Source: Selenomonadaceae bacterium
GTDB lineage: Bacteria > Bacillota > Negativicutes > Selenomonadales > Selenomonadaceae
Reading direction: 5' to 3'
Assembly: GCA_017406175.1 (NCBI GenBank)
Contig: JAFQZB010000316.1
Span: 1-53,274, forward strand
DNA length: 53,274 nt
Shown in pieces: positions 3,981-50,756 of this stretch. Within the stretch, counting starts at the first letter, position 1. Each line of letters opens with the position of its first letter. A program made the position numbers and the translations under genes. Under the pieces are notes generated by a model. The model did not search any database. It was not told the origin of the DNA and was given only the letters and a program-made list of their open reading frames with translations.

Positions 3981-3995
3981 TGGGAGGCGATTGTT

Positions 3996-5032: not shown

Positions 5033-5060
5033 AAATAGAGCCGCGACTTTTGCCGTGGCT
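5031..5060 (-). terminator. Rho-independent terminator on the minus strand
   Basis: On the minus strand: GAGCCACG-GCAAAAGT-CGCGGCTC followed by TATTTT. The same hairpin on the plus strand lacks a T-run. Confidence 0.55.
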
Positions 5061-5067
5061 CCAGAAT

Positions 5068-5533: not shown

Positions 5534-5561
5534 TTTATAACCAATATCCCTTTCGTGTCAA
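5534..5561 (-). promoter_or_regulatory. Sigma70-type promoter driving the candidate ncRNA
   Basis: On the minus strand: TTGACA (5561-5556), 16-nt spacer, TATAAA (5539-5534). It lies immediately downstream of the recX stop. Confidence 0.55.
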
Positions 5562-5587
5562 TACTTTAAATGAAACCGCCCTGAACG

Positions 5588-19267: not shown

Positions 19268-19612
19268 CTAGACCTTCGGCAAGACACGCAAGGTTATCTC
19301 GCCCGTGAAATTGTCGTGCCCCGCAAAGGATATGTCGTGATTGCCGGGCGGCACGTCAAGCGAAGTCTCCTGCGTCTTGTCAAAGGTGTAACTCTTGCCG
19401 CCGACGATTACTTCAATCTGCCCTTGCTCAATCTTCGTATCGACTGCCAAAGCCCCGCTAACTAACAGGGACTTTGAATCGCTCGTGTCGTTGAAGTTCT
19501 TGCCCGACATTTGAATTTCAGTATCAGTCGATTTAATGGAATGGCTTTCCGTCGAACAGCCGCCCACAATCAGAGCCGCCGCCAACATCATCATGCAAAA
19601 AAGTTTCTTCAA
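19268..19612 (-). CDS. Small lipoprotein, unknown function
   Basis: MKKLFCMMMLAAALIVGGCS lipobox. The start overlaps the stop of the upstream phosphatase (ATGA). Confidence 0.65.
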   Translation of the reverse strand: MKKLFCMMMLAAALIVGGCSTESHSIKSTDTEIQMSGKNFNDTSDSKSLLVSGALAVDTKIEQGQIEVIVGGKSYTFDKTQETSLDVPPGNHDISFAGHDNFTGEITLRVLPKV

Positions 19613-21804: not shown

Positions 21805-22949
21805 TTCTCCCAGCCGAGTTGCTTTGCCTTAACGAAATCCTCTTGAGACTTCTTAATATCGCCGCGTGCCTTATAACATTCGCCACGGGAACGATACGTC
21901 AAAGCATTTGCATGGAACGGACTAAACTCAAGAGCCTTACTGAAATAAGTTATCGCCTTGTCATACTTGTCTAACTGCATGTAAGCATGCCCCAAACCGT
22001 TATAAGCCTCGCCGATTTTGGGATTTAGTTCAAGTGCCTTTTGGTAATAAAAAATGCTCTTCTCGTAATCCCGTTCGCCGTTGTAGATGTTGCCGAAGGT
22101 AGACCACGCCCAAGCATTTTTAGGATTCAAAGCCAACGAATCACTTGCAAGCGGTGCCGCCTCGGTGTATTTCTCTTCGTCGCAGAGTTTGCGAGCCGCC
22201 CTTATCTTTTCCCTAGCCGTGTTAATGTTCTTCGCCTGGATAAAGTCTGCGCGAGCCTTTTCCTTGTCGCCGAGAGCTTGATAACATTCGCCTCTGCCGT
22301 TGAAAGCCGTGCCGTTGTTCGGGTCGAGTTTGATTGCCTTGTCGTAGTTTTGGATTGCGTTCCCGAAATCGTTCTTAGTCTTATAAAACCAACCGAACTT
22401 TTCATAAACAGCGGCGTTGTTTGAATCCAGATTAATCGCCTCAGTTAAAAGGGACAGCACGTTATCAAAGCTACCCGCGTTCATGAGGTTATTGGCTTCC
22501 TCAACCTTCCTGTTCGACATGTAAAGATTTTCGTTATCTTGATTCACGGGCGGCGGCGGAATATTTTTCGGATTGCTGTCGCCAGAATTTTGCAAGCGGC
22601 GGTTCAAGTCTTCGGGGTCAATATCAACTTTAACGATGGCTTTAACGATTAAATCCGACCGCTCGTAGACGACTTCGCGAACTTGCAAGACAGCCCCCGT
22701 CCTTGAGGTTATCACGTCCTCGACAAGTTCAAAATCCTCCGTGCGTGAACGGCTCGTAACCAAAACGCCGGCTTGCTCCAGAGCATTGCGCATCGCCTTT
22801 TCCTTAGCACCCTGCTTGGCAATCTCCAGCGTGTCACGTTCGCCAATCATGTATTCGCCAACGCCTGTATAAGTTTTAACTTCGGCGTGACTTGTCGGCA
22901 TGAAGAGCAAACTACTGACGAGAGCCGCCAGCAAAAAAAGTTTCTTCAA
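21801..22949 (-). CDS. Exported LPP20-like N-domain plus TPR-repeat protein
   Basis: Signal peptide MKKLFLLAALVSSLLFMPTSHA. N-domain YTGVGEYMIGERDTLEIAKQGAKEKAMRNALEQAGV. About seven TPR units toward the C-terminus. Confidence 0.75.
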   Translation of the reverse strand: MKKLFLLAALVSSLLFMPTSHAEVKTYTGVGEYMIGERDTLEIAKQGAKEKAMRNALEQAGVLVTSRSRTEDFELVEDVITSRTGAVLQVREVVYERSDLIVKAIVKVDIDPEDLNRRLQNSGDSNPKNIPPPPVNQDNENLYMSNRKVEEANNLMNAGSFDNVLSLLTEAINLDSNNAAVYEKFGWFYKTKNDFGNAIQNYDKAIKLDPNNGTAFNGRGECYQALGDKEKARADFIQAKNINTAREKIRAARKLCDEEKYTEAAPLASDSLALNPKNAWAWSTFGNIYNGERDYEKSIFYYQKALELNPKIGEAYNGLGHAYMQLDKYDKAITYFSKALEFSPFHANALTYRSRGECYKARGDIKKSQEDFVKAKQLGWEN

Positions 22950-25123: not shown

Positions 25124-25133
25124 CGAAACAACC

Positions 25134-25541
25134 TCAGAAGAATTTTTTCATGCGCAGAATATTTTTTCCATCTGTGTATTCGTAAGCGATCTCATCAACA
25201 TTTTTTTTGACAAGGAAGATTCCTAAGCCGCCAACGTCGCGCTCCTCAATGCTAAGGGTCGTATCGGGGGATTCCTGTTCAAGCGGATTGTAAGGTTTGC
25301 CGCTATCAATGAAAGTCATCAACATGGCGTTAGGATTTTCTTCAAACTCCATGCAAAAAGTCGCCGGTCCCGTCTCAGGGTGATAGGCATAGCTGGCAAT
25401 GTTGACGAAGATTTCTTCAATGACAAGCTCGGTCTGCATTATGGCTTTCATAGAGCAATCGCGAGCCTCAAGTTTTTCCGTCGCGAAGTCGATAACCGCC
25501 TGCAGATTGTCGAGCACCGCATCAACTGTAATCTTTTCCAT
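25134..25541 (-). CDS. Anti-sigma regulatory factor-type Ser/Thr kinase (RsbW/SpoIIAB-like GHKL ATPase)
   Basis: 135 aa with ELVIEEIFVNIASYAY, DSGKPYNPL and GGLGIFLVKK motifs. Confidence 0.8.
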   Translation of the reverse strand: MEKITVDAVLDNLQAVIDFATEKLEARDCSMKAIMQTELVIEEIFVNIASYAYHPETGPATFCMEFEENPNAMLMTFIDSGKPYNPLEQESPDTTLSIEERDVGGLGIFLVKKNVDEIAYEYTDGKNILRMKKFF

Positions 25542-25553
25542 GAGAAGTCTCCG

Positions 25554-25850
25554 TTAAACGATCGTCATCAGGCTAGCAAAGCCCGTCATGTCCAAGACTT
25601 CCATAACCGCTTCGCTGACGTTTATGAGTTTCATTGAGCCTTGCTTGCTCATGCGCTTTTGGGCGACGAGCAAAACCCTAAGCCCAGCCGAGGCAATGTA
25701 CTTAAGCTCTGCGAAGTCGAACGTTAAATCCGTCACGTCGTTAAGGGCGGTCGTCAGTTCCTTGGACAGTTCTGGCGCGGAGCCTGCGTCGAGGCGTCCG
25801 ATAACTTTGATTGTCAATGCGCTACCTTGTTGTTCCTTTTTGATTTCCAT
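25554..25850 (-). CDS. STAS-domain anti-sigma-factor antagonist (RsbV/SpoIIAA-like)
   Basis: The ATG at 25850 follows SD AAAGGAG. LTIKVIGRLDAGSAPELSKEL...YIASAGLRVLL includes the conserved phosphorylatable Ser context. Confidence 0.85.
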   Translation of the reverse strand: MEIKKEQQGSALTIKVIGRLDAGSAPELSKELTTALNDVTDLTFDFAELKYIASAGLRVLLVAQKRMSKQGSMKLINVSEAVMEVLDMTGFASLMTIV

Positions 25851-25863
25851 TTTACAATCTCCT

Positions 25864-27501
25864 TTATAATTCTTTTCTTGCGGCAATGTACTTGTTGACA
25901 GAGGCAATGAGTTGCGCCACGTCAAACGGTTTGGCAATGTGGTAGTTCATGCCGCTTTCCATGCTCATGCGTTTATCCTCATCGCGAGAGTTTGCACTCA
26001 ACGCGATTATCGGCAAAACTTTTGCGTCGGGGCGGTCGAGTGCACGAATTGCCCGCGTCGCTTCGTAGCCGTTCATTATCGGCATCTGTATATCCATTAA
26101 CACAAGGTCATAATAGCCCGGCGGGTGCTTAGTAAAAACTTCCACAGCCTCCACGCCGTCGGCTACGGTCTCGACTGAAAAGCCCGACTCCTCCAAAATC
26201 GTCTCGGCAAGCATTCGATTGAGTTCAATGTCGTCGACCAAAAGGATTCGATGATTGTAGTTGTCATCGGCAACGAGTTCTTTAACCTCCTCAATGAAGG
26301 TTTTCTCGTCCTTTTCGCGATAAATCTTGAACGGCAAGCCCACGGTAAAGGTCGTGCCCTCGCCCTTCTTGCTTTCCGCTTCGATTGAACCGCCCATTGC
26401 GTCGACGAGCTTTTTAGTTATCGACAGCCCCAGCCCCGCGCTTATATGCCCCGTCTTAGTCGAAGTCTCTTCGCGTTCAAAGGTCTCATACATGCGCTTC
26501 ATAAATTCTTCCCGCATGCCCACGCCGTCATCACTAATCACGAACTCGCAACGAATATAATTTTCGTCTTCGGAAGTCTTCTTCTTCCTAGCAGTTAGTT
26601 TGACGTGTCCGCCCGGTTGCGTGAACTTAATCGCGTTGTCAAGCAGGGCAGAAAGTATCTTCCTTAAGTTCACGTCGTCGGTATAAACCATCTCTCGCGG
26701 CAGGTTGATGACACTCTCAAGCGAAATGTTTTTAACTTCCGCCCGACTTTTGAAGGCGTGCACCACGACCATAACTTGTTCTTCCAAGTCGCAAATCTCG
26801 GAGCGCAGTTGCGTCTTGCCGTAGGTTATCTTGCTCATGTCTAGGAGGTCATTGACGAGGTTAAGCATTTGCAGGCTACTTTCGTCGACCTTCTCTAGAT
26901 AATTCTTCAAGAGTTCAGGCTCGTTGATGTGCCGCCGCGCCAGTTCCGTGAAGCCTCTGATTGAGTTTAACGGCGTCAAGATGTCGTGCGAAATGCTGAA
27001 GAGAAACGCCGCTTTGATTTCGCTAGCTTGCTTTTCCTTGTCCAATTCCATTTCCATGCGTAGTTTCTCCTCCTGAATAAGCCGTCGTTCCGTAATATCG
27101 CTGATAAAAACATAAAAGGCGTCGCCGTGCTCAGGGAACGTCGCGAAGTGCCCGTAGTCGTCAATCCAGCGAATCGAACCATCTTTGCGCGTGATTCGAT
27201 ATTCTACGTGGTCTAAATGGTCGTTATCGGGGTCGGCAATTTGTTCTTCGATTGATTCTTGAATTGCGTCGAAGTCATCGGGATAAACCATGCCGCGGAA
27301 AGTGTAACCTGTCAGCTCCTTGAACTCGTCGAGGCTCTTGCAACCGTAAATATCCAAAACTTCATTGTTGGCGTAAAAAAGTTCGTAAGGCTCTTTGGCA
27401 GAGTAGACGAAGAAGCCGCCCGGAACTTGCTCGGCAACCCATTTTAGCATCGGCAAGACCTCGTACAAATGTTTCTTGCCTAAAAAACTCGTTCTTCCCA
27501 T
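25864..27501 (-). CDS. Hybrid sensor histidine kinase (PAS, HisKA, HATPase_c, receiver)
   Basis: H-box FSISHDILTPLNSI. N/G boxes LLDNAIKF and DDGVGM...GLGLSI. Receiver ILLVDDIELNRM...LVLMDIQMPIMNGYEA. Confidence 0.9.
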   Translation of the reverse strand: MGRTSFLGKKHLYEVLPMLKWVAEQVPGGFFVYSAKEPYELFYANNEVLDIYGCKSLDEFKELTGYTFRGMVYPDDFDAIQESIEEQIADPDNDHLDHVEYRITRKDGSIRWIDDYGHFATFPEHGDAFYVFISDITERRLIQEEKLRMEMELDKEKQASEIKAAFLFSISHDILTPLNSIRGFTELARRHINEPELLKNYLEKVDESSLQMLNLVNDLLDMSKITYGKTQLRSEICDLEEQVMVVVHAFKSRAEVKNISLESVINLPREMVYTDDVNLRKILSALLDNAIKFTQPGGHVKLTARKKKTSEDENYIRCEFVISDDGVGMREEFMKRMYETFEREETSTKTGHISAGLGLSITKKLVDAMGGSIEAESKKGEGTTFTVGLPFKIYREKDEKTFIEEVKELVADDNYNHRILLVDDIELNRMLAETILEESGFSVETVADGVEAVEVFTKHPPGYYDLVLMDIQMPIMNGYEATRAIRALDRPDAKVLPIIALSANSRDEDKRMSMESGMNYHIAKPFDVAQLIASVNKYIAARKEL

Positions 27502-31825: not shown

Positions 31826-32200
31826 TTAAGCCGCTTTGATGAGGTCGAGAACCTGCCCATGAGTTAAGCTCTTGCCGTCTTTGCTGTAGTAGTTGTCGCT
31901 CTCGCGGAAGCCCGTTCCACCCCAACCAATGCTTATGTTCGATTTGATTCCGAGGCTGTCCTTTAGAATGCGTTCGGCAATCCGTGAGCCTACATTATTC
32001 CATGCTGCGGTTCCGACTTGACCGGCTACGGGGATTGCGCCGCCGATTTTCCGGATTCCGTTTGAAATATCTCCAACAACGCCCATCTTCTTTTCCATCG
32101 CGCTGTAGATTTCGTTGAATTCGTCCACCGTGCCGCCGCTGATGTTGTCGAGTTGCTCCATGTTGAGGATTTCTTCGTTGATGATGTTGATGTTTTTCAT
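31826..32200 (-). CDS. Double-glycine-leader secreted protein, paralogue 1 (124 aa precursor)
   Basis: Leader MKNINIINEEILNMEQLDNISGG fits the L(-12), L(-7), I(-4), GG(-2,-1) pattern. SD AAGGAG upstream. The C-terminal motif NYYSKDGKSLTHGQ is shared with 45697 and 50418. Confidence 0.7.
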   Translation of the reverse strand: MKNINIINEEILNMEQLDNISGGTVDEFNEIYSAMEKKMGVVGDISNGIRKIGGAIPVAGQVGTAAWNNVGSRIAERILKDSLGIKSNISIGWGGTGFRESDNYYSKDGKSLTHGQVLDLIKAA

Positions 32201-32250
32201 TGTTATCAGTCTCCTTTTTGTTTTTGTTTGGGATTTTGTTTTCTGTCCCT

Positions 32251-32278
32251 TATACGCAAGCCGAGCTGATTTGTTACA
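32251..32278 (-). promoter_or_regulatory. ECF-sigma-type promoter, TGTAAC-N16-CGTATA
   Basis: On the minus strand: TGTAAC (32278-32273), 16 nt, CGTATA (32256-32251), then AAGnnnCAGAAAAC. It lies directly after the clpB terminator. Confidence 0.6.
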
Positions 32279-32317
32279 AAAAAATCCCCGACTTTTTCAT
32301 CGGGGATAAAACGTTAA

Positions 32318-34942
32318 TTATTTATCGAGCTTAACGGCTGGCGTCTCCTTAACATTGAAGGTAAAGTCGCCGTCAAAGTCAATCTCGACCGTGTCGCCGT
32401 CCTTGACTTCGCCCGCGATAATCTTCTTGCTTAGCTCCGTCTCGACCGTGCGTGTCAAAAGCCGTTTAAGCGGTCGTGCGCCGTAGTTCGCGTCGAAGCC
32501 CTTATCAGCCAGCGTATCGACCGCGCCTTGCGTCCACGTGAGATTTATATTTGCCTGCTTGCTGAGTCGTTCGCCCAAAGTCTTAAGCAGAATCTCCGCG
32601 ATAGCTTTGACTTGCTCCTTAGCCAACGACTTGAAGACGATAATATCATCAATGCGGTTGAGGAATTCGGGACGGAAGTAATCCTTAAGCAAATTCTTGA
32701 TAATGCTCTCTGCCTCCGCGAATGCCTTGCTTGTGATGAATCCAATTTTTGCCCGCTGAAGGATTTCCTGCGAACCAAGATTGCTCGTCATGATGATAAC
32801 GGTGTTCTTGAAGTTCACGACGCGCCCTTTGCCGTCAGTCAATCTGCCGTCGTCTAGGATTTGCAGTAAGACGTTGAATACGTCGCGATGAGCCTTCTCA
32901 ATCTCGTCAAGCAGAATCACGCTGTAGGGTTTGCGGCGAATCTGTTCTGTTAATTGCCCGCCCTCGTCGTAGCCGACGTAACCAGGAGGCGCACCGATTA
33001 ATCTAGCGACCGTATGCTTTTCCATGTATTCGGACATGTCGACGCGGACAATACTGCGTTCGTCGTCGAAGAGTGCTTCCGCCAATGCCTTAGCTAATTC
33101 CGTTTTGCCGACGCCCGTCGGACCTAAGAAGATGAACGAGCCGATTGGGCGATTGGGGTCTTTGATACCTGCACGGGCGCGGAGGATAGCCTCGCTTACG
33201 GCTTTAACGGCTTCATCTTGCCCGACAACGCGTTCATGCAAAGTATCTTCCAAGTGCAAGAGCTTTTCGCGTTCGCCCGTCAACATTTTGGCAAGGGGGA
33301 TACCCGTCCACCGGCTGACGACGCGGGCAATATCTTCCTCGCCGACTTCCTCTTTTAACATGCGATTATCTTTATCCTGCGCGGCAATGTCTTCTTCCGC
33401 CTGCTTTAGCGTGGTCATCAGTTCGGGCAACTTGCCGTATTTAAGCTCGGACGCCTTCTGCAAGTTGTACGCCCGTTGAGCCTCCTCAATTTCACCGTTC
33501 ACGCTGTCGATTTCCTTCTTAATCGCACGCACACGCAGGATAGCTTCCTTTTCCGCCTCCCACTTGTCGCGAAGAACTTTTTCCTTGTCCTTGAGCTGGG
33601 TTATTTCTTCGGCAATGGCTTTAAGCTTTTCTTGGGACGCCGCGTCTGATTCTTTGTTAAGGGCTTGCTCCTCAATCTCAAGTTGCATAATCTTGCGGCG
33701 GGTCTCGTCGATTGGCGCGGGCAGTGATTCAATTTCCGTGCGGAGTTTAGCCGCCGCCTCGTCGACAAGATCAATCGCCTTATCGGGCAAGAATCGGTCG
33801 CTGATATAACGGTCGGAAAGAGTCGCCGCACTGACTAAAGCCGCGTCCCGAATCCTAACGCCGTGATGAACTTCGTAGCGTTCCTTTATGCCGCGCAGGA
33901 TTGTAATCGTGTCCTCAACGCTCGGTTCGCCGACCATGACGGGTTGAAAGCGGCGTTCAAGGGCGGTGTCCTTCTCCAGATACTTGCGGTACTCGTTAAG
34001 GGTCGTCGCGCCTATGCAACGCAATTCGCCACGCGCCCGCATCGGCTTAAGGATATGGCCCGCGTCCATTGCGCCTTCGGACGTGCCAGCCCCCACGACC
34101 GTATGCACCTCATCGATAAACAGCAGTATTTGCCCGTCGGACTTGGTAATTTCGTTGAGCACGGACTTTAACCGCTCCTCGAATTCGCCGCGGAACTTCG
34201 CGCCCGCAATCAACGCCGCCATGTCCAAAGCGTAAAGCGTTTTGTTCTTGAGCGATTCGGGCACGTCACCCGCGACGATACGTCTTGCAAGCCCCTCAAC
34301 GATAGCCGTTTTGCCGACGCCCGGTTCACCGATGAGCACAGGATTATTTTTCGTCCGCCGACTTAGGATTTCAATCGTCCGCCTAATTTCCTCGTCGCGC
34401 CCGATGACGGGGTCGAGCTCGCCAGCCAACGCCGCTTGCGTCAAATCCCGTCCGAACTTCGCTAAGCTCTGGTAAGTCTCTTCGGGATTGTCGCTCGTGA
34501 CGTTCTGTTTACGATTCTTTTTTATCGCCGCGTCGATTCGGTTCTTGTTCAGGTTAAATTCGCGGGCAATGTCTTGCACTTCCTTTTTGCCGTCGGTGAC
34601 TAGGGCAAGCAGTAAATGTTCCGTGCTGATAAATTCGTCTTTCATAGACGCCGCGTAATCTTTTGCCTTGCCCATGACACGCGCCAAATCCACGCCCATT
34701 GACAGCCGCTCTTGACCTTTGACTTGCGGAATCTTATTCAACTCCGCCTCCAGCCTGACTTTGAGCATTGGCAAATCCGTTTGACATTCCCTAAAGATTG
34801 TCGCCAATAATCCTTCCGGCTCCTTAGCCAACGCCAACATCAAATGCACCGAGCTGAATTCCTGATGATATTTCATTGCCGCGAGCTGTTGCGCCGCTTG
34901 AATTGCCTCTTGCGCTTTGTTCGTATATCTTTCTGCTACCAT
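32318..34942 (-). CDS. clpB: ATP-dependent chaperone/disaggregase ClpB
   Basis: Two AAA+ modules ([18 protein letters not shown]) and a long middle coiled coil. The ATG at 34942 follows SD AAGGAG. Confidence 0.95.
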
Positions 34943-35084: not shown

Positions 35085-35993
35085 ATGAACAAAGATGAAT
35101 TGCTTGGCTTGTTGGACGATGCTGACGTTCGGGAAAAGATTTTGGCAATCGTGAATCAGCAGGCGGACGACGTGCAGGAACCCATTCCGGAGGCAATCAA
35201 AGTTGAATCACAGCGGGCGGATAGACTTTTAGCCGAGGTCGACCCGTGGAAGCAAAAGTTTGACGACGAACGCCAGCGGGCAAAAATTCTTCAAGCTGAA
35301 CTTAAAGCTGAGGGCAAGCGGGCGGATAAACTTCAACGCGAGGTCGACGCTTGGAAGGAAAAGTTTAACGCCGAACGCAGACGGGCAGATAAGCTCAAAA
35401 TCGACGGCGACGCCTGGATTAAGCAGTACGAACATCAGCAACGGCGCGCAAATGAACTTCAAGGCAAGCTCGAAACGTGGATTAAAAAGTTTAACGACGA
35501 ACAGGAGAAGTCGGAAAAACTTCAAAGGGATTTCGACGACGCGGAAGGAAAACTTTCTAGGCTGGAGGACTTCACTCGCGGCTTTGAAATCTATCAGAAG
35601 TATCAAGGCGTCGGCTCTCATGCTCAACAGCTCTTGTCGGCGGGAGTCTTCACGCGCAATGACTTTACGTCGTTCATCTGCGGCGGGGCGCAAGTCAATT
35701 CCCTTGAGACGATTTGGGATGTGTGGCGTGAATGCGTCATGGGCGGCAAGAATCAGGACGCTAAGATTTTGTGCGAAGTTTTCATGTATTGCTTGGGGCT
35801 GGTCAACGCCTCTAAGGTGCAGGCGAGCTATTCAATCTTGCCCGTGAAGGTCGGCGACCCTTTCGACTCGGATATTCACGTTGAAGCCCCCGGCAGTCGT
35901 GCGCAAGGCAAAATCTCCGAAGTCTATCTGCCCGGCTACCGCAACAACTATAATCAACGTATCATCAAGAAAAGTATCGTTAAGGTTAGCTAA
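35085..35993 (+). CDS. Coiled-coil repeat protein with a GrpE-like C-terminal domain
   Basis: SD GAGGAGG upstream. Residues 44-163 are five to six 21-22-aa repeats (RADKLQREVDAWKEKFNAERR type). The C-terminus VGDPFDSDIHVEAPG...ISEVYLPGYRNNYNQRIIKKSIVKVS aligns with the GrpE beta-domain signature. Confidence 0.7.
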   Translation: MNKDELLGLLDDADVREKILAIVNQQADDVQEPIPEAIKVESQRADRLLAEVDPWKQKFDDERQRAKILQAELKAEGKRADKLQREVDAWKEKFNAERRRADKLKIDGDAWIKQYEHQQRRANELQGKLETWIKKFNDEQEKSEKLQRDFDDAEGKLSRLEDFTRGFEIYQKYQGVGSHAQQLLSAGVFTRNDFTSFICGGAQVNSLETIWDVWRECVMGGKNQDAKILCEVFMYCLGLVNASKVQASYSILPVKVGDPFDSDIHVEAPGSRAQGKISEVYLPGYRNNYNQRIIKKSIVKVS

Positions 35994-36001
35994 GGAGTTG
36001 T

Positions 36002-36778
36002 ATGTCAATGGAGACGAAAAGCAAGAATGAAATCCAATCGTTATTTGAAAAATACCACGTGATTATAAAGACGGACGATATGCAAAATGAGGATATGATT
36101 GATGTTATTGAGCACTTGGAAACGGACGCCGTAGCATATGAACGCCCTGATGCTTACATTCTGCGCGGAAAATTTATTTATGCGATAGAACACTTCTGCG
36201 TTTCTCAATACGCAAAGAAAAAGAATTCCGATTTATCAAAAGAGGCTGAAGGAGCCAAAATTTGTCGAGATAAAATGAAGACAGACAGAGACTTTAACCT
36301 CTTTCCGTCTCGTTCAAATCTGGAACGTAGCTTTCGGGAAAATTTAGATAAACACTCTAAAAGCTTTTCTACTTATAAAAAAAATATCATGGCGATTGAT
36401 AAAGCTAAAAATCACGATTACCGCCTAATCATATTAATCGAAGACATTACTGAAAGCTGGCTTGTGAAAAGTCGCGAAGTCAATATAATTAATCCCTTAA
36501 ATTTATCAACGATGTTCGACATCTTATCGGAATATCAAAATTCTGTTTGGGGTATTGCTTGCTTGTATGGCAATGAGCGAGATAAATTTTTGACAGGATA
36601 CACCGTGGAAGAATTGGACGAACGAAAGAAGAATGGTAAATTACTCTGTGCGGAAAATTATGTTCCCTTTGAAACGGAACGCAAGGTTCATGTCTCTAAG
36701 AATAATTCAAAAGACGATAGAAACTCTGTGACAATAAAATTGTATGACTGCTTTTGTAACAGGGATGGTATTAAATAA
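36002..36778 (+). CDS. Hypothetical protein (258 aa), AT-rich orphan
   Basis: SD AAGGAG lies 5 nt upstream. Composition is visibly more AT-rich than both neighbours. No family recognised by eye. Confidence 0.6.
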   Translation: MSMETKSKNEIQSLFEKYHVIIKTDDMQNEDMIDVIEHLETDAVAYERPDAYILRGKFIYAIEHFCVSQYAKKKNSDLSKEAEGAKICRDKMKTDRDFNLFPSRSNLERSFRENLDKHSKSFSTYKKNIMAIDKAKNHDYRLIILIEDITESWLVKSREVNIINPLNLSTMFDILSEYQNSVWGIACLYGNERDKFLTGYTVEELDERKKNGKLLCAENYVPFETERKVHVSKNNSKDDRNSVTIKLYDCFCNRDGIK

Positions 36779-36790
36779 GGAGATGAGATT

Positions 36791-39700
36791 ATGCCATTCA
36801 ATCGCCCGACGATGAAAAAAGCTTTGAGCGTGCCGAAGGTGCAAATCCCCGCGCTCGTCAAGCAAACGACCATTGCAAATATCGCGCCCGCTACCGCCAA
36901 AGTCAAAGCCGACATCCTCAACCTTGCCGAGAACATCAAGCCCGTCGCGGACAAAACGTTTGTCATGATGAAAAATAAAAAGGTTTGGTTCGACAGGAAC
37001 AACGCCGCCATTTATCCCAAGTTTGAGCATTTCACTCTGCCCGAATTCAAAACCAAAGGTCAGCCGTCGAAAAATTATAGCGTCGACTTTGAAGGTTTTC
37101 ACTTCGTAGGAATGACTCGCCGCGAAGGTCTCAACAGCTTTACTCAACTTGAACGCAATCCCTATCTACAGGACGACGGCAACTTTAGGAACTTTCCGAA
37201 CTCCCAAAATAGATTCGCCGGTGTTTTGACGGGCGACCTTAAACCAGAGGGCGGCGTTTGGTGCGTTCATTCAGATGGCTCTATTGATGGTTGGAACGAC
37301 GACGAAAACTTTTTTACATTAGTGCCGATTAGTCACTTAAAAGGCAAGGACAGCAGACGCATTGACTTTTTCGAGGCGGTGTGGCTGTGGTTGAAGAATG
37401 GACTTATTCCCAAAGGCATGAACGCCGAAGACGAGCGCGAATTCCTCCGAATCATTAACGAGTATAAAAATTTCTTCTCTTATCTTGACTTCAACGATAA
37501 CGAACTCCGCCTTGCCGAAAACATCAGCGGAGATTTGTCTGCTCTCGTTGCGGAACTTTCAAGCATCGTCAATAAAACTTTCGTGATGATGAAGAACAAG
37601 CAAGTTTGGTTCGACAGGAACAACGCTGCACTTTATCCCAAGTTCGAGCATTTCACTCTGCCCGAATTCCAAGCTAAAGGTCAGCTGTCGAAAAATTACA
37701 GCGTCGACTTCGAGGGCTTTCATTTTGTGGGAATGATGCGCCGCGAAGGTTTGAACAGTTTTACTTGCCTTGAACGCAATCCCTATTTGCAGGACGATAA
37801 AACTTTTAGAAACTTTCCAATGAAACACAATACATCTGTAATGACAAGCGATATTCGCTCTGATAGCAGAGTATATGTTATTTATCCATGGTATGGTTTA
37901 TCTCATTGGGGAGATACTAGTACAACTGCATTGGTTCCGATTAGTCGTTTGAAGGGCATAAACAGCGGGCGCGTTGGTTTTGTCGAGGCGGTCTGTCTTT
38001 GGCTGAAGAACGGACTTGTTCCCGAAGGCTTGAGCACGGAGCTTGAAAAGAAATATACGGACTTCATGAGCCGCCCTAATCTACAAGCGACGATAAATGA
38101 GTTCTTCAACGAAATGACGCGACTAAAACTTTCTGCGGCGGCGATAACCTTTGACGGCGACCGCTTTAAAAGGGACGTGCTCGGCGGAAAGTTCACGGCG
38201 AAAGTTTTTGATTACGATTTCGACATAAAAGGGACGCTCGAAGGTATCATGGACGGTTCGCGGCAGTATACAGGCTCGGTTGCGTCGCTCAAGCAAGAAC
38301 TTTTGAACTGCGACTTCAAACGCGCAAACATTGAGCCCTATGACGAACGACTGCTAATTGATGTTAATCGCGGACATTGGGAGCTATTCGAGGACTCGGC
38401 GAAGGATTCAATTCAAGTACAGTTGCCCGCCGCTGAAATGCTCGTGGCTCGTCCGCCTCAACTCGACGTGCGACTTAATGGCATTTGCGCAATCGACTTC
38501 GGCACCAAAAATACAATCGTAGTTTGCCGCGACGGTGAATCACGTATGCTGAGGATTGGCAAGGGCGACTATTCCAAAGCCCCGACTGTCGACGACTTCC
38601 AAAATCCGACCGTGATTGAACTGCGCGACCTGCAAAACTTCTTGGCGGCGTATCGTCAGCGGACAGGGCGACCCTTCACGGAATGGAATCAAGTTACGGT
38701 CTCTCACAAGGCGGCGGAGGCAATCTTCAAAGAAAACGTCGGCTCCTCGGTTTATAATTCGGTCTTCAGCGAGCTAAAGCAGTGGGCTAAGGACGAGCAA
38801 AGCTATCCCGTGCTAAAGGACTTGCAAGGGGCGATTCAGGAGATTAAACCCTACCTTGAAACGGATTCGATTGACGCGGGCGACTTCGACCCCATTGAGC
38901 TTTACGCCTATTACCTCGGACTTTATATCAACAACATGCACCGGCAGATTTATTTGGATTATATCTTGTCGTATCCGGTCAATTACAGGAAGGACGTTCG
39001 CGAGCACATTCGCCAGAGCTTTGAACGCGGGCTAAGGAAATCACTGCCGCCCGCCCTGCTTGCCGACGAAGAGCTTATGAAACGTTTCCGCGTGTATTTG
39101 GGAGCCAGCGAGCCAGCCGCCTATGCAATTAGTGCTTTGGAGGGTTTCAAGCTTGAGCCTAAGAACACCGACGATAAGATTGCTTACGGGGTGTTCGACT
39201 TCGGGGGCGGCACCACGGATTTTGACTTTGGGATTGAGTACGTGCCGGAGAATCACCGCCGCAACTTTATCATTGAGCAATTTGGGTTCAATGGCGATGC
39301 TCTGCTTGGCGGCGAAAATATTTTGGAGTTGCTAGCCTATGAAGTCTACAAAGACAACTTGCAGGAGATGCGCAGTAAAAAAATTCCGTTCGCGTTGCCG
39401 GCGGGCTGTGAAGTCTTCGCGGGAGCCGAGACGCTTGTAAGTCGCACGCGGGATTCAGCGGCGCACATGAACAATCGGATACTCGCCGAGGCATTGCGCC
39501 CGATTTGGGAGAACACCGACCGCACTAAGCTGACCGAAGACGCCCTGCCCTTGAAACTGTTTGCTAAGGAATCAGTGCCCGTCACGCTGAAAATTGACGT
39601 TGACAAGTTAGACGGGCTGATTGAGCGGCGGATACGTGAAGGCGTCGTGAATTTCTTCCAGTCGCTAAAAGTTGCGTTCGCGGGCAAGGACATTTCCCCG

Positions 39701-40495
39701 ATTCACATTTTCCTTGCGGGCAATTCGTGCCGTTCGCCGGTAGTCAGGAAGATTTTCGACGAATTCATCAGCCGCGAGGACGGAGAATTTATTCTGCACA
39801 TGCCGCTTGGTATGGACTTTGAAGCCGAACTGCTTGCCCTTGCCGATAAACTTTCCGCCGCTGAAAATATCATTCCCGCCGCGAAAGAAATTGCGACGTT
39901 GGCTAGGGAGATTGGAGCCACAGAACTTGCCGAGCTTGCGGAGGATAGCATTTCCAAAGCCGAACGAAACGAACGGAGCGACGACTTGGCGAACGCAATC
40001 AAAGCTTTCTTTGCCGATAAGAACAGTCAATCGAACGTCATGGAACTAGACAGGCAACGAACCGGCAAAACGGGCGTGGCGTTCGGGCTGATTCGCTGTC
40101 GACGCGGCGGCAAGGACATTCAGATTATTAATCGCAACGTCGACGCAAACGATGAGATGATTTTTCCGTACTTCCTCGGCGACGCGGGCAACGACGGCAA
40201 TACATTCACGGTAAAGATTGGGCGCGAAGTCGGCTACGGCGTTTGGACTTACTTTACGTTCGCTGACGAGCCGGAGTTTGAACTTTACTACACTACGGAG
40301 CCGCGAGCCTTGAAGGGCGACCTAGCCGCCGATAAGGTTAAGATGGTTCACTGCTTGCTTGACGACACCAGCGACGATGAGGATTTTGGCGTTTACGTCC
40401 GAAAAGTCACGCCGAATCAGATTGAATACGCCGTCGGGCGAGCGGAAGACTTCAAAGATAATTTCAGCGGAAAAATTTATCGGCAGGCGTTGTAA
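36791..40495 (+). CDS. 1234-aa protein: tandem duplicated unknown N-terminal domains plus an Hsp70/actin-fold (ASKHA) ATPase domain
   Basis: SD AAGGAG upstream. ASKHA motifs occur in canonical order: ICAIDFGTKNT, YGVFDFGGGTTDFDFG, GDALLGGENI, IHIFLAGNSCRSPVV, TGKTGVAFGL. No Hsp70 substrate-binding domain is recognisable. Confidence 0.75.
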   Translation: MPFNRPTMKKALSVPKVQIPALVKQTTIANIAPATAKVKADILNLAENIKPVADKTFVMMKNKKVWFDRNNAAIYPKFEHFTLPEFKTKGQPSKNYSVDFEGFHFVGMTRREGLNSFTQLERNPYLQDDGNFRNFPNSQNRFAGVLTGDLKPEGGVWCVHSDGSIDGWNDDENFFTLVPISHLKGKDSRRIDFFEAVWLWLKNGLIPKGMNAEDEREFLRIINEYKNFFSYLDFNDNELRLAENISGDLSALVAELSSIVNKTFVMMKNKQVWFDRNNAALYPKFEHFTLPEFQAKGQLSKNYSVDFEGFHFVGMMRREGLNSFTCLERNPYLQDDKTFRNFPMKHNTSVMTSDIRSDSRVYVIYPWYGLSHWGDTSTTALVPISRLKGINSGRVGFVEAVCLWLKNGLVPEGLSTELEKKYTDFMSRPNLQATINEFFNEMTRLKLSAAAITFDGDRFKRDVLGGKFTAKVFDYDFDIKGTLEGIMDGSRQYTGSVASLKQELLNCDFKRANIEPYDERLLIDVNRGHWELFEDSAKDSIQVQLPAAEMLVARPPQLDVRLNGICAIDFGTKNTIVVCRDGESRMLRIGKGDYSKAPTVDDFQNPTVIELRDLQNFLAAYRQRTGRPFTEWNQVTVSHKAAEAIFKENVGSSVYNSVFSELKQWAKDEQSYPVLKDLQGAIQEIKPYLETDSIDAGDFDPIELYAYYLGLYINNMHRQIYLDYILSYPVNYRKDVREHIRQSFERGLRKSLPPALLADEELMKRFRVYLGASEPAAYAISALEGFKLEPKNTDDKIAYGVFDFGGGTTDFDFGIEYVPENHRRNFIIEQFGFNGDALLGGENILELLAYEVYKDNLQEMRSKKIPFALPAGCEVFAGAETLVSRTRDSAAHMNNRILAEALRPIWENTDRTKLTEDALPLKLFAKESVPVTLKIDVDKLDGLIERRIREGVVNFFQSLKVAFAGKDISPIHIFLAGNSCRSPVVRKIFDEFISREDGEFILHMPLGMDFEAELLALADKLSAAENIIPAAKEIATLAREIGATELAELAEDSISKAERNERSDDLANAIKAFFADKNSQSNVMELDRQRTGKTGVAFGLIRCRRGGKDIQIINRNVDANDEMIFPYFLGDAGNDGNTFTVKIGREVGYGVWTYFTFADEPEFELYYTTEPRALKGDLAADKVKMVHCLLDDTSDDEDFGVYVRKVTPNQIEYAVGRAEDFKDNFSGKIYRQAL
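36917..38080 (+). repeat. Intragenic tandem duplication of ~590 bp (aa 43-239 versus 240-430)
   Basis: 36953-37195 and 37574-37810 encode near-identical sequence (KTFVMMKNK.VWFDRNNAA.YPKFEHFTLPEF...LERNPYLQDD). DNA differences are mainly at third codon positions. Confidence 0.9.
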
Positions 40496-43831: not shown

Positions 43832-45070
43832 ATGCAATCAATCGTTAAGGACATGGCATTAGCTCCGAGCGGGCACGCCAAAATTGAATGGGTAAAAAAC
43901 TTTATGCCAGTGATGTCGGCTATCGATAAGGAGTTTTCCGAGTCCAAACCTTTCGCGGGCAAGAGGATTTCGATAACCTTGCATCTTGAGGCGAAGACGG
44001 CTTATATGGCGGAAGTCTTCATGCACGCGGGCGCGGACGTCGTGATAACCGGCTCCAATCCGCTTTCCACTCAAGACGACGTGGCGGCGGCTCTAGCTGA
44101 AGACGGCGTAACTGTATTTGCTACTCATGGTTGCTCGCCCGAAGAGTACGACGACTATTTGAATAAGGCGGCGGACTTCGCGCCCGACATTTACATTGAC
44201 GACGGCGGCGACTTCACCGAGCTTATCCACACCAAACGCCGCGACGCCCTCCAAAAGATTATTGGCGGCTCCGAGGAAACTACAACGGGTGTATTGAGGC
44301 TTCGGGCTTTGGAACGACAAGGCAAGCTCGCCTTCCCGATGATTGCTGCTAATGACGCTTACTGCAAGTTCCTGTTCGATAATCGCTACGGCACGGGGCA
44401 ATCGACTTGGGATGGAATCATGCGCACGACTAATCTTGTTATCGCGGGCAAGACGGTTGTTATCGCGGGCTACGGCTGGTGCGGCAAAGGCGGCGCGATG
44501 CGTGCTAAGGGTTTGGGCGCGAACGTCATCATCACGGAAGTTGACCCGATTAAAGCGATTGAGGCGGTCTTCGACGGGTTCCGCGTTATGCCGATGATTG
44601 AGGCGGCTCCGCTCGGCGATATTTTCCTGACTTTGACGGGCGACAAGGACGTTATCACCGGCGAACACTATCCTCTGATGAAAAACGGAGCAATGCTCGC
44701 TAATGCTGGGCATTTCGACGTTGAAATTAATATTCCGCAACTCGAAGCGCAATCCGTGAGCCGCAAAGTCGTCCGCAACAACGTCGAGGAATTTTTACAG
44801 CACGACGGACGCAAGATTTATCTTTTGGCAGAAGGTCGGCTGGTAAATCTGGCTTCGGGCGACGGGCACCCCGCTGAAATCATGGATTTAAGCTTTGCCG
44901 TTCAATTCTTCAGCGCGGCGCACATTCTCCACAATCACACAAAGCTTGAGAACAAAGTTTACCTCATGCCCGAAGAAATCAATACAAAAATTGCCGAAAT
45001 CAAATTGGAATCAATCGGCGTGAAAATCGACACCCTAACCGACGAGCAAAGAGCTTATCTCGGCTTATGA
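43832..45070 (+). CDS. ahcY: Adenosylhomocysteinase
   Basis: [21 protein letters not shown] and the NAD-binding GYGWCGKG motif. Confidence 0.92.
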
Positions 45071-45408
45071 AAACTTCAATTGACGGGCGGCTTTTCGAGT
45101 GGGACGACGCCAAAAATAAAATTAACAAGATTAAACACGGCATCAACTTCAAGACGGCGGCGCGGGTTTTCAGCGACCCGTATCTCATTGAAGAATACGA
45201 CGAAGAGCATTCTACAGATGAAGACAGATGGAAAATTATTGGTATGGTTGACGATGTTTTATTTGTTATTTATACCAACCGCGACGAAAAAATACGATTG
45301 ATTTCTGCTCGTGAAGCGACCGAACAAGAAAGGGGAAGATATTATGGCAACCGTATTTTACTACTTACCAAATCCGCCGCCGCCGCTGACGGAAGAGGAA
45401 AAAGCTGA
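45067..45408 (+). CDS. brnT: BrnT-family (DUF497) type II toxin
   Basis: [29 protein letters not shown]...EDRWKIIG...[13 protein letters not shown] matches the BrnT pattern. The start overlaps the ahcY stop (ATGA). Confidence 0.8.
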
Positions 45409-45592
45409 ACTTGCCGCCCTAAAAGACCGTCCGATTACTTACGACGAGGATTGCCCGCCAATGACTGAGGAACAACTCGACGAACTCGATTATCTTATGC
45501 GCAAGTATAAAACGCGACGCATTACCAAAGAAATAAAGATGAAAGAATTCCCCGAACGTTTTCAAAAGCATAAATCAGAGGCAGCAGGATAA
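45344..45592 (+). CDS. BrnA/DUF4415-like antitoxin
   Basis: The ATG at 45344 follows SD AAAGGGGA. The acidic DRPITYDEDCPPMTEEQLDE segment is typical of BrnA-like partners. It overlaps the toxin ORF tail. Confidence 0.6.
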   Translation: MATVFYYLPNPPPPLTEEEKAELAALKDRPITYDEDCPPMTEEQLDELDYLMRKYKTRRITKEIKMKEFPERFQKHKSEAAG

Positions 45593-45696: not shown

Positions 45697-46008
45697 TTAG
45701 CGGATAATCTTCGTTCCGTTCTCTGCGTCGAAATTTTTCCAGAATTGTTCGCGGGTAATCGTGTTGCCGCTCTTGTCGGTGTAAATGTTGGCGTTTAAGA
45801 GTCCGCCGTTGTCCTTGTAGCCCGCGTAACCCATTTTGTGGAGCAATTCGCGTACCGGAGTGGAATGAATGGAGTTTTCCGCGCTCAAAAGTCCGCGTTT
45901 GTACAGTTCGTCGCCGTCTTGCAATGTTTCGATTATTGTGCCGCCCGCCACGCCGTCAAGTTCCTCGTCGCTCAACACTTCGTCCTTCAAAATCTTTTCG
46001 TCAGCCAT
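45697..46008 (-). CDS. Double-glycine-leader secreted protein, paralogue 2 (103 aa precursor)
   Basis: The ATG at 46008 follows SD GGAGG. Leader MADEKILKDEVLSDEELDGVAGG is a perfect L(-12), E(-8), L(-7), V(-4), GG pattern. Confidence 0.75.
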   Translation of the reverse strand: MADEKILKDEVLSDEELDGVAGGTIIETLQDGDELYKRGLLSAENSIHSTPVRELLHKMGYAGYKDNGGLLNANIYTDKSGNTITREQFWKNFDAENGTKIIR

Positions 46009-46040
46009 TTTTATCAACCTCCAAATCGTTTTCTGCTTCT

Positions 46041-46068
46041 TATACGTTGAATTTCCGATTTCGTTACA
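46041..46068 (-). promoter_or_regulatory. ECF-sigma-type promoter, TGTAAC-N16-CGTATA
   Basis: On the minus strand: TGTAAC (46068-46063), 16 nt, CGTATA (46046-46041). A sigma70-like TTGACC-N17-TAAAGT lies just upstream (46098-46070). Confidence 0.6.
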
Positions 46069-46164
46069 AACTTTAGCAAAAAATTTTTTCGCGGTCAACG
46101 AAATTTTTTCAGGGCAGGAAATTTGCTTCAAGTACAGAAAAAATCTTCGCGAGGAGGGATTTAT

Positions 46165-47982
46165 ATGGGAAAAATCTTTAGACGAACGCTGACGGCTCTG
46201 CTAATCGTGATTTTCGCATTAAGTGCGGCAATCGTCGGCGCAAAAATCCAAATGTACACGGCGACTGGCGAAGATTACGCTAACGAAGTCGAATCGCAGG
46301 ATATTGCTAAGCTCCGTGCACGCGACAAGGCTATCAAGAAGGCGACAAAACAAGCCGGCGTTTATTTGAAAACCTATTCGCGCTCCGTCAACAGCGAATT
46401 AACCGATGATGAAGTCACTGCGATAACGTCAAACGCTTGGCAACTCGTCGGCGAGCCTAAATACTCAAGTAAGATAGTAAAAGGTTCCGATGAAACGTCG
46501 ATTATCATTTGGACGGCGACTGTTGAGGTTAATGTCGACGATTCAGAGATTCAAAGCTGGATTAAACGCGATGATAAAGATAAATCGACGATAATCACTC
46601 AAACACAAGAGGCGCAGAAGTCTGCAGAAGAAAACGACCGCAAAATTGAAGACTTGAGAGAAAAATACAACCGCGCAACGTCTCAAGCCGAAAAAGATAG
46701 CCTTCGCAAGCAGATGAACGACTCCGACCGCGACTTTTTAGCTAATCAGAAGCTTGAAGAAGGAAATAAGCTTTATTATGCCAAAGATTATTACGGAGCG
46801 ATTAAACTCTACAGAGAAGTTATTAAAATTAAGCCAGATTGGTCTTTTCCGTACAACAATCGCGGCGTTGCTTATAATGATTTAGAACAATACGAGCGAG
46901 CCATTGCTGATTACGATAAAGCTATTCAACTCAATCCGAATTTAGCCGAGGCGTACAACAATCGCGGAGTTGCTTATAATAAATTAGGACAATACGAGCA
47001 AGCCTTCAATGATTACAATCGAGCTATCGAACTCAATCCGAATTATGCATCTGCGCACAACAATCGCGGCAATGCTTATAGCCTTTTAAAACAAAACGAG
47101 CGAGCAATTCAAGATTTTGACAAAGCTATCGAACTCAATCCGAAGTATGCGGAGGCGTACAACAATCGCGGCAATGCTTATAGCCTTTTAAAACAAAACG
47201 AGCGAGCAATTCAAGACTACAATAAAGCAATCGAACTCAATCCGAATTATGCCAATGTGTATTATAACCGCGGTATTGCTTATTCTGATTTAGGACAAAA
47301 AGAGCGGGCAATTCAAGATTATTCCAAAGCTATCGAACTCAATCCGAATTTTGCATCTGCGTACAATAATCGCGGCAATGCTTATTATTATTTAGGACAA
47401 TATGAGAATGCGATAGCTGATTATTCTAAAGCAATAGAACTTAATCCAAATCATACTGGGGCGTACAGACGGCGTGCTCAAGCTTATAAAGAACTTGGAC
47501 AATATGAGCAAGCTATTGAGAATTATACTATGTCTATTAAAATTAAATCAGATGATATCTTCTTATATGAAGGCAGAGGTATAGCCTATTACAAAGTAAA
47601 AAAATATCAGAAAGCTATTGCTGATTTCAATAAAGCTCTCAAACTCAATCCGGAATTTACAGCGATTCGTGCTTCTAGAGGAAATGTTTATTACGAATTA
47701 AAAGATTACAAAAAAGCTATCCAAGATTATGATAAGTACATTGAAAAAAATCAAACGGATTATCGTGTTTATTTTAAACGCGGTATGTCTTATAAAAATT
47801 TAAAGCAATACGAAATGGCTATTCAAGACTTTGAGAAGGTTTTTAAACTTACTCGTTATGAATTTAGTTTTGATAAATCTGAGTTATATTTTAATCGTGG
47901 ATTTTGTTATCAACAACTCGGCGATGAGGCAAAAGCGCAAGCTGACTTCGCGAAAGCAAAAGAACTCGGCTACAAAGGCTGA
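46165..47982 (+). CDS. Membrane-anchored/exported LPP20-like N-domain plus TPR-repeat protein (~13 TPR units)
   Basis: The ATG at 46165 follows SD GGAGGG. Signal/anchor LTALLIVIFALSAAIVGA. Long TPR array with AYNNRG..Y..L.Q.E.AI.DY.KAIELNPN consensus. AT-rich. Confidence 0.8.
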   Translation: MGKIFRRTLTALLIVIFALSAAIVGAKIQMYTATGEDYANEVESQDIAKLRARDKAIKKATKQAGVYLKTYSRSVNSELTDDEVTAITSNAWQLVGEPKYSSKIVKGSDETSIIIWTATVEVNVDDSEIQSWIKRDDKDKSTIITQTQEAQKSAEENDRKIEDLREKYNRATSQAEKDSLRKQMNDSDRDFLANQKLEEGNKLYYAKDYYGAIKLYREVIKIKPDWSFPYNNRGVAYNDLEQYERAIADYDKAIQLNPNLAEAYNNRGVAYNKLGQYEQAFNDYNRAIELNPNYASAHNNRGNAYSLLKQNERAIQDFDKAIELNPKYAEAYNNRGNAYSLLKQNERAIQDYNKAIELNPNYANVYYNRGIAYSDLGQKERAIQDYSKAIELNPNFASAYNNRGNAYYYLGQYENAIADYSKAIELNPNHTGAYRRRAQAYKELGQYEQAIENYTMSIKIKSDDIFLYEGRGIAYYKVKKYQKAIADFNKALKLNPEFTAIRASRGNVYYELKDYKKAIQDYDKYIEKNQTDYRVYFKRGMSYKNLKQYEMAIQDFEKVFKLTRYEFSFDKSELYFNRGFCYQQLGDEAKAQADFAKAKELGYKG

Positions 47983-50328: not shown

Positions 50329-50356
50329 TTGACTGCGGAAGATTTTTTGCTAAAAT
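50329..50356 (+). promoter_or_regulatory. Sigma70-type promoter upstream of GG-leader gene 3
   Basis: TTGACT (50329-50334), 16-nt spacer, TAAAAT (50351-50356). Confidence 0.5.
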
Positions 50357-50357
50357 G

Positions 50358-50385
50358 TGTAACGAAATGGATTTTTGAACGTATA
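50358..50385 (+). promoter_or_regulatory. ECF-sigma-type promoter, TGTAAC-N16-CGTATA
   Basis: TGTAAC (50358-50363), 16 nt, CGTATA (50380-50385), then AAGCTTCAGAAAAC. Confidence 0.6.
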
Positions 50386-50417
50386 AGCTTCAGAAAACAC
50401 TTTGGAGGTTGATAATC

Positions 50418-50756
50418 ATGGCAAAGGACATTTTGAAGGACGAAATCTTGAAGGACGAGGAACTCGAACAGGTAGCCGGCGGAACTTTTGCGGAAAGTTA
50501 TAGCGACGCTCAACAGTTTGAAAAACTCGGCGTGAAAATCTTCAAAAATGATTTGGTTGGCGTTCCGCTTCTCGACCCTGAAGGTTTCGTAAACCTGCGC
50601 GCAGCGTTTGATAAATACGGCGTCACAATCAAAGACGATGGGAGCATTTGGGGCGACTTGACTGGCAAATCCAAAGCAAATCAATATTATATCGACGGCA
50701 AGGAAGTCAGCCGCGAAGATGCCTGGAAACACATCAACGCGCAGTTCGGTAAGTAA
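50418..50756 (+). CDS. Double-glycine-leader secreted protein, paralogue 3 (112 aa precursor)
   Basis: The ATG at 50418 follows SD GGAGG. Leader MAKDILKDEILKDEELEQVAGG. The C-terminal NQYYIDGKEVSREDAWKHI matches the family motif. Confidence 0.75.
   Translation: MAKDILKDEILKDEELEQVAGGTFAESYSDAQQFEKLGVKIFKNDLVGVPLLDPEGFVNLRAAFDKYGVTIKDDGSIWGDLTGKSKANQYYIDGKEVSREDAWKHINAQFGK

Follow-up and report, generated by a model that had tools for sequence, protein, structure and literature searches.

A candidate ECF sigma promoter shared by double-glycine leader peptide genes of rumen Quinella and its likely cognate sigma factor

A 53,274-nucleotide stretch of DNA from a Selenomonadaceae bacterium (GenBank assembly GCA_017406175.1, contig JAFQZB010000316.1), called the window throughout, carries three genes for peptides with a double-glycine (GG) leader, and each is preceded by the same sequence element, TGTAAC-N16-CGTATA. 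The window is rumen Quinella-type DNA with ~95% identity to Quinella sp. 1Q5 and to the metagenome-assembled genome (MAG) RGIG6124. Quinella is an abundant, still uncultured rumen bacterium. Scanning the window returned exactly three matches to the element, each 5' of a different GG-leader gene. The core motif occupies 32278-32251 on the minus strand (locus 1), 46068-46041 on the minus strand (locus 2) and 50358-50385 on the plus strand (locus 3), which are the positions and the 16-nucleotide (nt) spacing claimed in an earlier sequence-only reading of this DNA. The full element common to the three loci is longer and reads TGTAAC-N16-CGTATAAG-N3-CAGAAAAC.

At locus 1, the full element covers 32238..32278 on the minus strand (TGTAAC, 32278-32273; CGTATAAG, 32256-32249; CAGAAAAC, 32245-32238) with a predicted transcription start (+1) at A32244, and is followed by GG-leader gene 1 (32200-31826, minus strand), which encodes 124 residues with the leader MKNINIINEEILNMEQLDNISGG. 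Locus 2 has the element at 46028..46068 on the minus strand (TGTAAC, 46068-46063; CGTATAAG, 46046-46039; CAGAAAAC, 46035-46028; predicted +1, A46034) in front of GG-leader gene 2 (46008-45697, minus strand; 103 residues, leader MADEKILKDEVLSDEELDGVAGG). At locus 3 on the plus strand, an exact TGTAAC forms the predicted -35 element (50358..50363), the predicted -10 element CGTATAAG begins 16 nt past it (50380..50387) and the predicted start-site box CAGAAAAC follows at 50391..50398. By analogy with the RNA end at locus 1 described below, the locus 3 +1 would be A50392, leaving a 26-nt 5' untranslated region (UTR) to the ATG at 50418 of GG-leader gene 3 (50418-50756, plus strand; 112 residues, leader MAKDILKDEILKDEELEQVAGG).

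Allowing one mismatch in the 12 specified bases of the core motif retrieved the same three sites only, compared to a mean of 0.07 matches in shuffled sequence, and none of 100 shuffles reached three. A 13-base core searched with up to two mismatches gave no window site beyond these three. The claim that the window holds no other full match is therefore upheld by the scans, also with one mismatch. A leader-pattern scan of the window detected no further GG-leader open reading frame (ORF), the same pattern having missed the third known one. Homologues of the three peptides are all annotated as hypothetical, those with a named source all come from Selenomonadaceae or Quinella, and the peptides themselves match neither NHLP nor Nif11 models. 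Loci 2 and 3 resemble each other along the whole upstream region. Locus 1 has the motif blocks in common with them and not the spacer, the upstream DNA or the UTR.

The 22 specified bases of the full element were scanned against one genome per species (185,579 species, 596 Gb). There were 65 exact copies in 57 loci, compared to an estimated ~0.07 copies by chance in 596 Gb. All but one of the contigs with exact copies are labelled Selenomonadaceae, Selenomonadales or Quinella and derive mostly from ruminant gut samples; the lone exception belongs to a MAG labelled Bacteroidales and may be mis-binned. Seven exact copies are carried by MAG RGIG5621. The copies are gene-associated, with a GG-leader ORF located 3' of ~59 of the 62 that could be assessed. 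The leaders are of types such as MATREENLKKINDELEKLSDEELEKVAGG or MAKEILKDEILKDEELDNVAGG and the mature parts are very diverse. The three exceptions are followed by a signal-peptide protein, a 31-residue ORF of unclear status and a small ORF beside a sigma factor gene. A relaxed scan of the same loci added ~50 copies. The productive ones all have a spacing of 16, and the variation tolerated is TGTAA(C/T), CGTATAA(G/A/T) and (C/T)A(G/T)AAAAC. Genes with Nif11-like leaders or signal peptides follow a few of the added copies. Many motif copies lie in tandem arrays. A perfect copy on the minus strand of locus L006 (offset 1135 of the reverse complement) precedes a GG-leader gene with an early stop in the leader, likely a pseudogene. 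Some of the GG genes behind the motif have a C39-less ATP-binding cassette (ABC) transporter gene of 502-560 residues beside them (L019:2121-4103, L021 and L055), directly 3' of the GG gene in L019, and this transporter may have an immunity or dedicated export function.

The full set comprised 124 unique copies, and filtering out those with 85% or higher identity to one another left 113. Essentially all 124 have a 16-nt spacer. The conservation profile of the 113 non-redundant copies consists of two rigid, near-invariant blocks, TGTAAC being one, around the variable 16-nt spacer. Spacer, UTR and encoded cores diverge freely, and the distance from motif to ATG varies (median 60 nt, up to 119). 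Conservation extends to positions that had no part in retrieval. The GAA after TGTAAC is conserved, and the start box, which lies outside the relaxed retrieval, has A34 in 94% and A36-38 in 96-98% of copies. An A5T6 tract located 10-19 nt 5' of TGTAAC is retained by more than 80% of the copies and is 64-94% conserved per position; at locus 3, it is AAGATTTTTT (~50339-50348, plus strand). The tract lies at ~-53 to -44 from the predicted +1, which is UP-element distance, and for this reason it probably acts like an UP element of the predicted promoter. A sigma70-type promoter reading would instead place the tract inside the spacer of that promoter, as it does at locus 3.

A Pfam survey of ~48 window ORFs detected no sigma or anti-sigma gene next to the peptide genes. 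Clustering the ORFs of the 57 motif loci gave no recurrent regulator, and antisense artefacts of the peptide genes made up the largest clusters. One motif copy, spotted by eye, sits at the end of a gene for a 182-residue extracytoplasmic function (ECF) sigma factor (L013:3080-3628). The product scores 131 bits with TIGR02937 (131-133 bits over the orthologues scored; cut-off 42.9) and matches Pfam Sigma70_r2 and Sigma70_r4_2. It reaches the cut-off of none of the sigma subfamily or equivalog NCBIfam models; SigW models give 75-90 bits versus cut-offs of 209 and 243, and SigX models give 66-72 bits versus 194 and 260. Protein homology, which is independent of the motif, was used to find orthologues of 181-182 residues with 64-100% identity in ~25 Quinella-group MAGs, and homologues with 41-49% identity in Selenomonas and Anaerovibrio. 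A motif with at most one mismatch is present just 3' of the sigma gene in 17 of the 25 orthologue loci, and TGTAAC overlaps the stop codon in 13. These stop-codon copies sit in coding sequence without a sigma70 box. The distant homologues have drifted motifs, such as TGTAAT-N16-CGTATAT or TGTAAC-N16-GCATATAAAGAACA, followed by AAAG- or GG-leader ORFs. The sigma locus is present in both Quinella sp. 1Q5 and RGIG6124, the window's close relatives, and in 1Q5, with the sigma gene at L117:1901-2446, the sequence reads GACATGTAACGAATTCCGCTCGTCAACGTATAAGCTTTAGAAAAA, followed by the ATG of a small ORF. In locus L059 (=L068), the motif lies 141 nt beyond the sigma stop codon, after a noncoding relic of the usual sigma 3' end (aagctgaaaaaatttttaaccaaca), which suggests that the A/T tract and TGTAAC normally double as coding sequence for the sigma C terminus. 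Many orthologues have a sigma70-type TTGTTA-N17-TA(A/C/G)AAT with a TGn extension upstream of the sigma gene. Rumen metatranscriptomes contain transcripts of the sigma gene, and in RNA run X25, one contig holds it together with the small ORF.

Assembled contigs of public RNA runs, which are a poor proxy for 5' ends, were used as transcript evidence. At locus 1, run X25 from a near-identical strain (2 differences in 221 nt) yields a contig over 32022-32242 that ends inside CAGAAAAC. Its end at 32242 is 9 nt past CGTATA and 2 nt past the predicted +1 at A32244. The interval 32243-32316 is covered by none of four RNA runs, and clpB contigs stop aligning at 32317-32318 in two runs. A contig from run X44, for which no library type is recorded, spans 32052-32292 without a break, so the X25 end is unlikely to be an assembly-graph artefact. 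This apparent RNA 5' end fits initiation just downstream of CGTATAAG, as would be expected if the element is the functional promoter at locus 1. As the sequence-only reading described, the locus 1 element directly follows the clpB intrinsic terminator (stem at 32307-32284, minus strand), whose T-run provides the first T of TGTAAC, and no sigma70-like match lies upstream of the motif. Expression of the peptide genes is high. In contigs of sheep rumen metatranscriptomes, the leader-coding parts 50416-50467 and 45933-45976 show word depths of 1,600-6,000, summed over many paralogues, and in rumen metatranscriptomes this leader-peptide family ranks among the Quinella transcripts with the highest representation.

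The motif is probably an alternative-sigma promoter read by the ECF sigma described above. In the proposed mechanism, TGTAAC would be the -35 element and CGTATAA(G) the -10 element, held at a fixed 16-nt spacing for an ECF-type (group IV) sigma, and transcription would start at the A of CAGAAAAC, 7 nt past CGTATA. The likely cognate sigma is the 181-182-residue protein of the Quinella group of Selenomonadaceae encoded between glgB and an export operon. Both the sigma gene and the exporter operon would run from sigma70-type promoters. The ECF-type promoter would be placed on the substrates, namely dozens of GG-leader genes, dispersed or in tandem, a few genes with Nif11-like leaders or signal peptides, and the small ORF adjacent to the sigma gene, so that secreted-peptide output would be gated by the activity of one sigma. 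In approximately 40% of the genes, those of loci 2 and 3 included, an additional sigma70-type promoter located 1-4 nt 5' of the motif may provide basal expression. The presence of the motif before more than 100 such genes and behind an ECF sigma gene next to an exporter makes a dedicated alternative-sigma regulon for secreted peptides the most likely interpretation. The dedicated ECF regulon of the sequence-only reading is supported by the lineage-wide association with GG-leader genes and by a sigma gene that carries the motif, whereas its envelope-stress character is not, given the link to an exporter and the lack of a membrane anti-sigma.

Several observations weigh against this assignment. 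We infer the dependence of the motif on the sigma. The sigma gene is located outside the window, and its presence in this genome is presumed from the ~95%-identical relatives. Homology scans found a sigma orthologue in 18 of 29 motif-bearing assemblies, with 1Q5 found separately; assemblies in which none was detected may be incomplete MAGs or may reflect limited search reach. No motif with fewer than three mismatches occurs within 320 nt upstream of any of the 25 sigma orthologues, so that the sigma gene, unlike those of typical ECF sigmas, is not autoregulated. The analysis recognised no classical anti-sigma gene, and no membrane anti-sigma is adjacent. Distant homologues do not retain the CGT of the -10 element (GCATATAA, GGATATAA). 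For the start site, the evidence comes from a single assembled RNA contig at locus 1; those at loci 2 and 3 are shattered by paralogue-shared sequence (Logan unitigs, no run with the same strain) and are uninformative on starts. Some RNA contigs of paralogous tandem arrays cover both the motif and sigma70-like boxes; read-through, sigma70-driven transcripts or contaminating DNA may explain contigs across the motif.

It is unlikely that the motif is a genuine promoter or activator site read by another factor, either a different ECF sigma or a transcription activator, with its adjacency to the sigma gene irrelevant to recognition. Such a factor would account for a sigma gene that is not autoregulated through the motif and for the 18 of 29 assemblies with a detected sigma, and the survey on which the sigma dependence is based covered this ECF sigma and its homologues. 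It would not account for the 17 of 25 orthologue loci that have the motif 3' of the sigma gene, 13 of them with a fixed offset, or for the drifted motifs that persist beside homologues with 41-49% identity, as a cognate pair would be expected to show. The two-block layout with 16-nt spacing, AAC and CGT is an ECF signature, and motif and sigma are confined to the same narrow lineage.

A second explanation, also improbable, is that a sigma70-type promoter (TTGAC-N16/17-TAnnnT) does the work and the motif is an operator or 5'-leader element that modulates expression, for example a site bound by a repressor between +1 and +40, or an RNA element that affects stability or translation. The upstream TTGAC(C/T)-N16/17-TAAA(G/A)T reported by the sequence-only reading is indeed present as a good extended -10 promoter at locus 2 (TTGACC-N17-TAAAGT, 46098-46070, minus strand) and locus 3 (TTGACT-N16-TAAAAT, 50329-50356, plus strand), both with a TGn extension. 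Among the 113 copies, TAnnnT with TGn lies 1-4 nt 5' of TGTAAC in 61 and a full sigma70-type box in 48 (~40%). The paralogue contigs that span the motif fit this explanation as well, and conservation of a start box past the -10 element is unusual for a plain promoter. However, over half of the copies keep the motif without a sigma70-type box, the clpB-adjacent copy is expressed with only a terminator upstream and its RNA contig begins inside CAGAAAAC, and the copies at the sigma stop codon have no such box within their coding sequence. Locus 1, the sigma-adjacent copies and over half of all copies lack the sigma70-type boxes, which are therefore not the common mechanism. Where present, they look real, and a tandem arrangement with the ECF promoter is the simplest reading; tandem promoters are well known at ECF-controlled genes of Bacillus subtilis.

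The 5' leaders and upstream regions also lack the features expected of an RNA element or operator. RNAalifold predicts 0 pairs in 35 diverse copies, Rfam gives no match except a tRNA, and the fold z-scores of the three loci are -0.43, -0.07 and -2.2, with loci 2 and 3 near zero. No dyad or direct repeat is common to the three loci. A structured cis-regulatory RNA was rejected on the Rfam and RNAalifold results, and a LytTR-type site was rejected for want of a common direct repeat, the only repeats being A/T tracts at loci 2 and 3 and none at locus 1. The locus 1 stretch from motif to start codon (81 nt, 32198-32278, minus strand) is the one with z = -2.2, and 3 of 200 shuffles fold as well.

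Shared ancestry alone, with peptide genes recently multiplied together with their upstream DNA and the motif functionless, would fit the many tandem arrays and the likeness of loci 2 and 3 over the whole upstream region, but it is very improbable and disfavoured by the conservation pattern, because locus 1 has only the motif blocks in common with loci 2 and 3, the blocks are near-invariant in 113 copies less than 85% identical while spacer, UTR and cores diverge, and copies of the motif lie within the 3' end of the sigma gene as well.

The sigma gene and the small ORF follow glgB and a gene for a 61-residue membrane protein, and face a convergent five-gene export operon (L119:10221-18733, minus strand; L118:9382-13566). 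The operon encodes a 390-residue membrane-fusion protein with RND/MFP-type Pfam matches, a second membrane-fusion protein of 320 residues with faint MFP-type matches, a 736-residue Peptidase_C39 ABC transporter (L119:14392-16602; Peptidase_C39, ABC_membrane and ABC_tran), a second ABC protein of 897 residues and a 492-residue TolC-like outer-membrane protein with an OEP domain. The second ABC protein scores 724.8 bits with the TIGR03797 (NHLP bacteriocin export) equivalog model versus a cut-off of 709.4. Judged by these domains, the five genes would supply the machinery expected for processing and export of double-glycine-leader peptides from a diderm cell. The expected mature peptides have 80-100 residues. 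The operon has a sigma70-like promoter and no ECF motif upstream.

A conserved ORF of 60-66 residues lies immediately 3' of the sigma gene in 20 of the 25 orthologue loci (for example L013:3684-3878 and L117:2501-2695). Its consensus is MTiEeRf.QtDFSQFSKiKDSLL.RLKLRRRAINEEMSLeELD.VAAAG followed by a short tail. Conservation is strong over the N-terminal 48 residues, which close with the GG-type processing motif EELDxVAAAG. The tail, of the NPN...KYPPR type, has 11-16 residues and is highly variable, with 103 distinct tails among 113 proteins. There are ~245 homologues, 120 of them listed (P0001-P0120); all are hypothetical, and those with a named source all come from Selenomonadaceae or Quinella. 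The small ORF has no family match. We tentatively propose that the small ORF couples sigma activity to the exporter, a possibility we rate as open to considerable doubt. In one version, the small ORF may be an anti-sigma that is cleaved or exported by the C39-peptidase ABC transporter, which would match peptide synthesis to export capacity by analogy with FlgM. In the other, it may give rise to a secreted signal peptide, specific to the strain, with feedback on the sigma. Either version, if true, would be a circuit not described for ECF sigmas or double-glycine peptide exporters.

Published hallmarks of ECF promoters are AAC in the -35 element and CGT in the -10 element, with CGTA for sigmaW (PMC5758882). 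The Quinella-group motif resembles the B. subtilis ECF promoters (sigmaW TGAAAC-N16-CGTA; sigmaX with CGAC) in its AAC -35 element, CGT(A) -10 element and 16-nt spacer, a close match to the consensus, and differs in the added conserved start box and upstream A5T6 tract. The sigma is likewise small with regions 2 and 4 only. The sigmaW/sigmaX likeness drawn in the sequence-only reading holds for these promoter hallmarks but not for the protein, which is no orthologue of SigW or SigX, its equivalog scores being 66-90 bits versus cut-offs of 194-260. Unlike sigmaW and sigmaX, the Quinella-group sigma gene is not autoregulated and has no adjacent membrane anti-sigma, and its putative regulon consists of secreted leader peptides rather than envelope defence genes.

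Dedicated ECF sigmas control ribosomal peptide antibiotics in actinomycetes, where MibX/MibW (microbisporicin) and PspX/PspW (planosporicin) each act in one biosynthetic gene cluster, where the sigma is autoregulated and a classical anti-sigma is present. The Quinella-group sigma would similarly switch on genes for ribosomally made, exported peptides. It differs in that a single sigma seems to serve dozens of scattered precursor genes, all of which have a promoter copy of their own, and in that the exporter is sigma70-driven. The exporter resembles the NHLP/Nif11 export systems (TIGR03796/TIGR03797 ABC pair with a membrane-fusion protein) in its TIGR03797 match above cut-off beside a C39-peptidase ABC transporter, and in the arrangement of one exporter for many unlinked precursor genes. 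To our knowledge, no sigma-factor regulon is known for these systems, and the literature searched here turned up none. Class II bacteriocins can be under quorum sensing by LytTR response regulators of the ComE/BlpR/PlnC type, which bind two direct repeats ~21 bp apart upstream of the -10 element. The Quinella-group genes are like these systems in the coregulation of GG-leader genes through one repeated upstream element and in the small gene with a GG-type leader beside the regulator. They are unlike them in that no 9-10 bp direct-repeat pair is common to the three loci, the regulator locus has no histidine kinase or LytTR gene, and the regulator is a sigma factor.

The window contains other features. 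The divergent neighbor of GG-leader gene 2 encodes a 619-residue protein with ~10 TPR repeats (46123-47982, plus strand), and four related loci (L033 among them) have a similar 593-residue ORF with a hydrophobic segment at the N terminus. A gene for a BrnT-family ribonuclease toxin of the type II toxin-antitoxin class (45067-45408, plus strand) is overlapped by a 93-residue ORF (45311-45592) that may be its partner. Three successive ORFs of 302, 258 and 1234 residues without a Pfam match lie at 35085-40495 on the plus strand, divergent from clpB. An unrelated partner-switching module without an adjacent sigma gene occupies 19609-27501 on the minus strand. It comprises a PAS hybrid histidine kinase (25864-27501), a STAS protein (25554-25937), a HATPase_c_2 anti-sigma-like kinase (25134-25541) and two dCache-HAMP-SpoIIE phosphatases (22946-25123 and 19609-21804) with a TPR protein between them.

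The literature on Quinella bacteriocins and on ECF control of double-glycine peptides yielded no description of such a regulon. The assignment would turn a set of hypothetical proteins into a defined regulon, with a testable promoter, a candidate sigma and an exporter for more than 100 secreted peptides of an abundant rumen lineage. It would also provide a sigma/promoter pair that is compact and orthogonal. This sigma is atypical in that it is not autoregulated, has no classical anti-sigma and has a partner that resembles an exporter substrate. If the small ORF does control the sigma, the Quinella system would represent a new coupling of gene expression to secretion or to cell-cell signalling.

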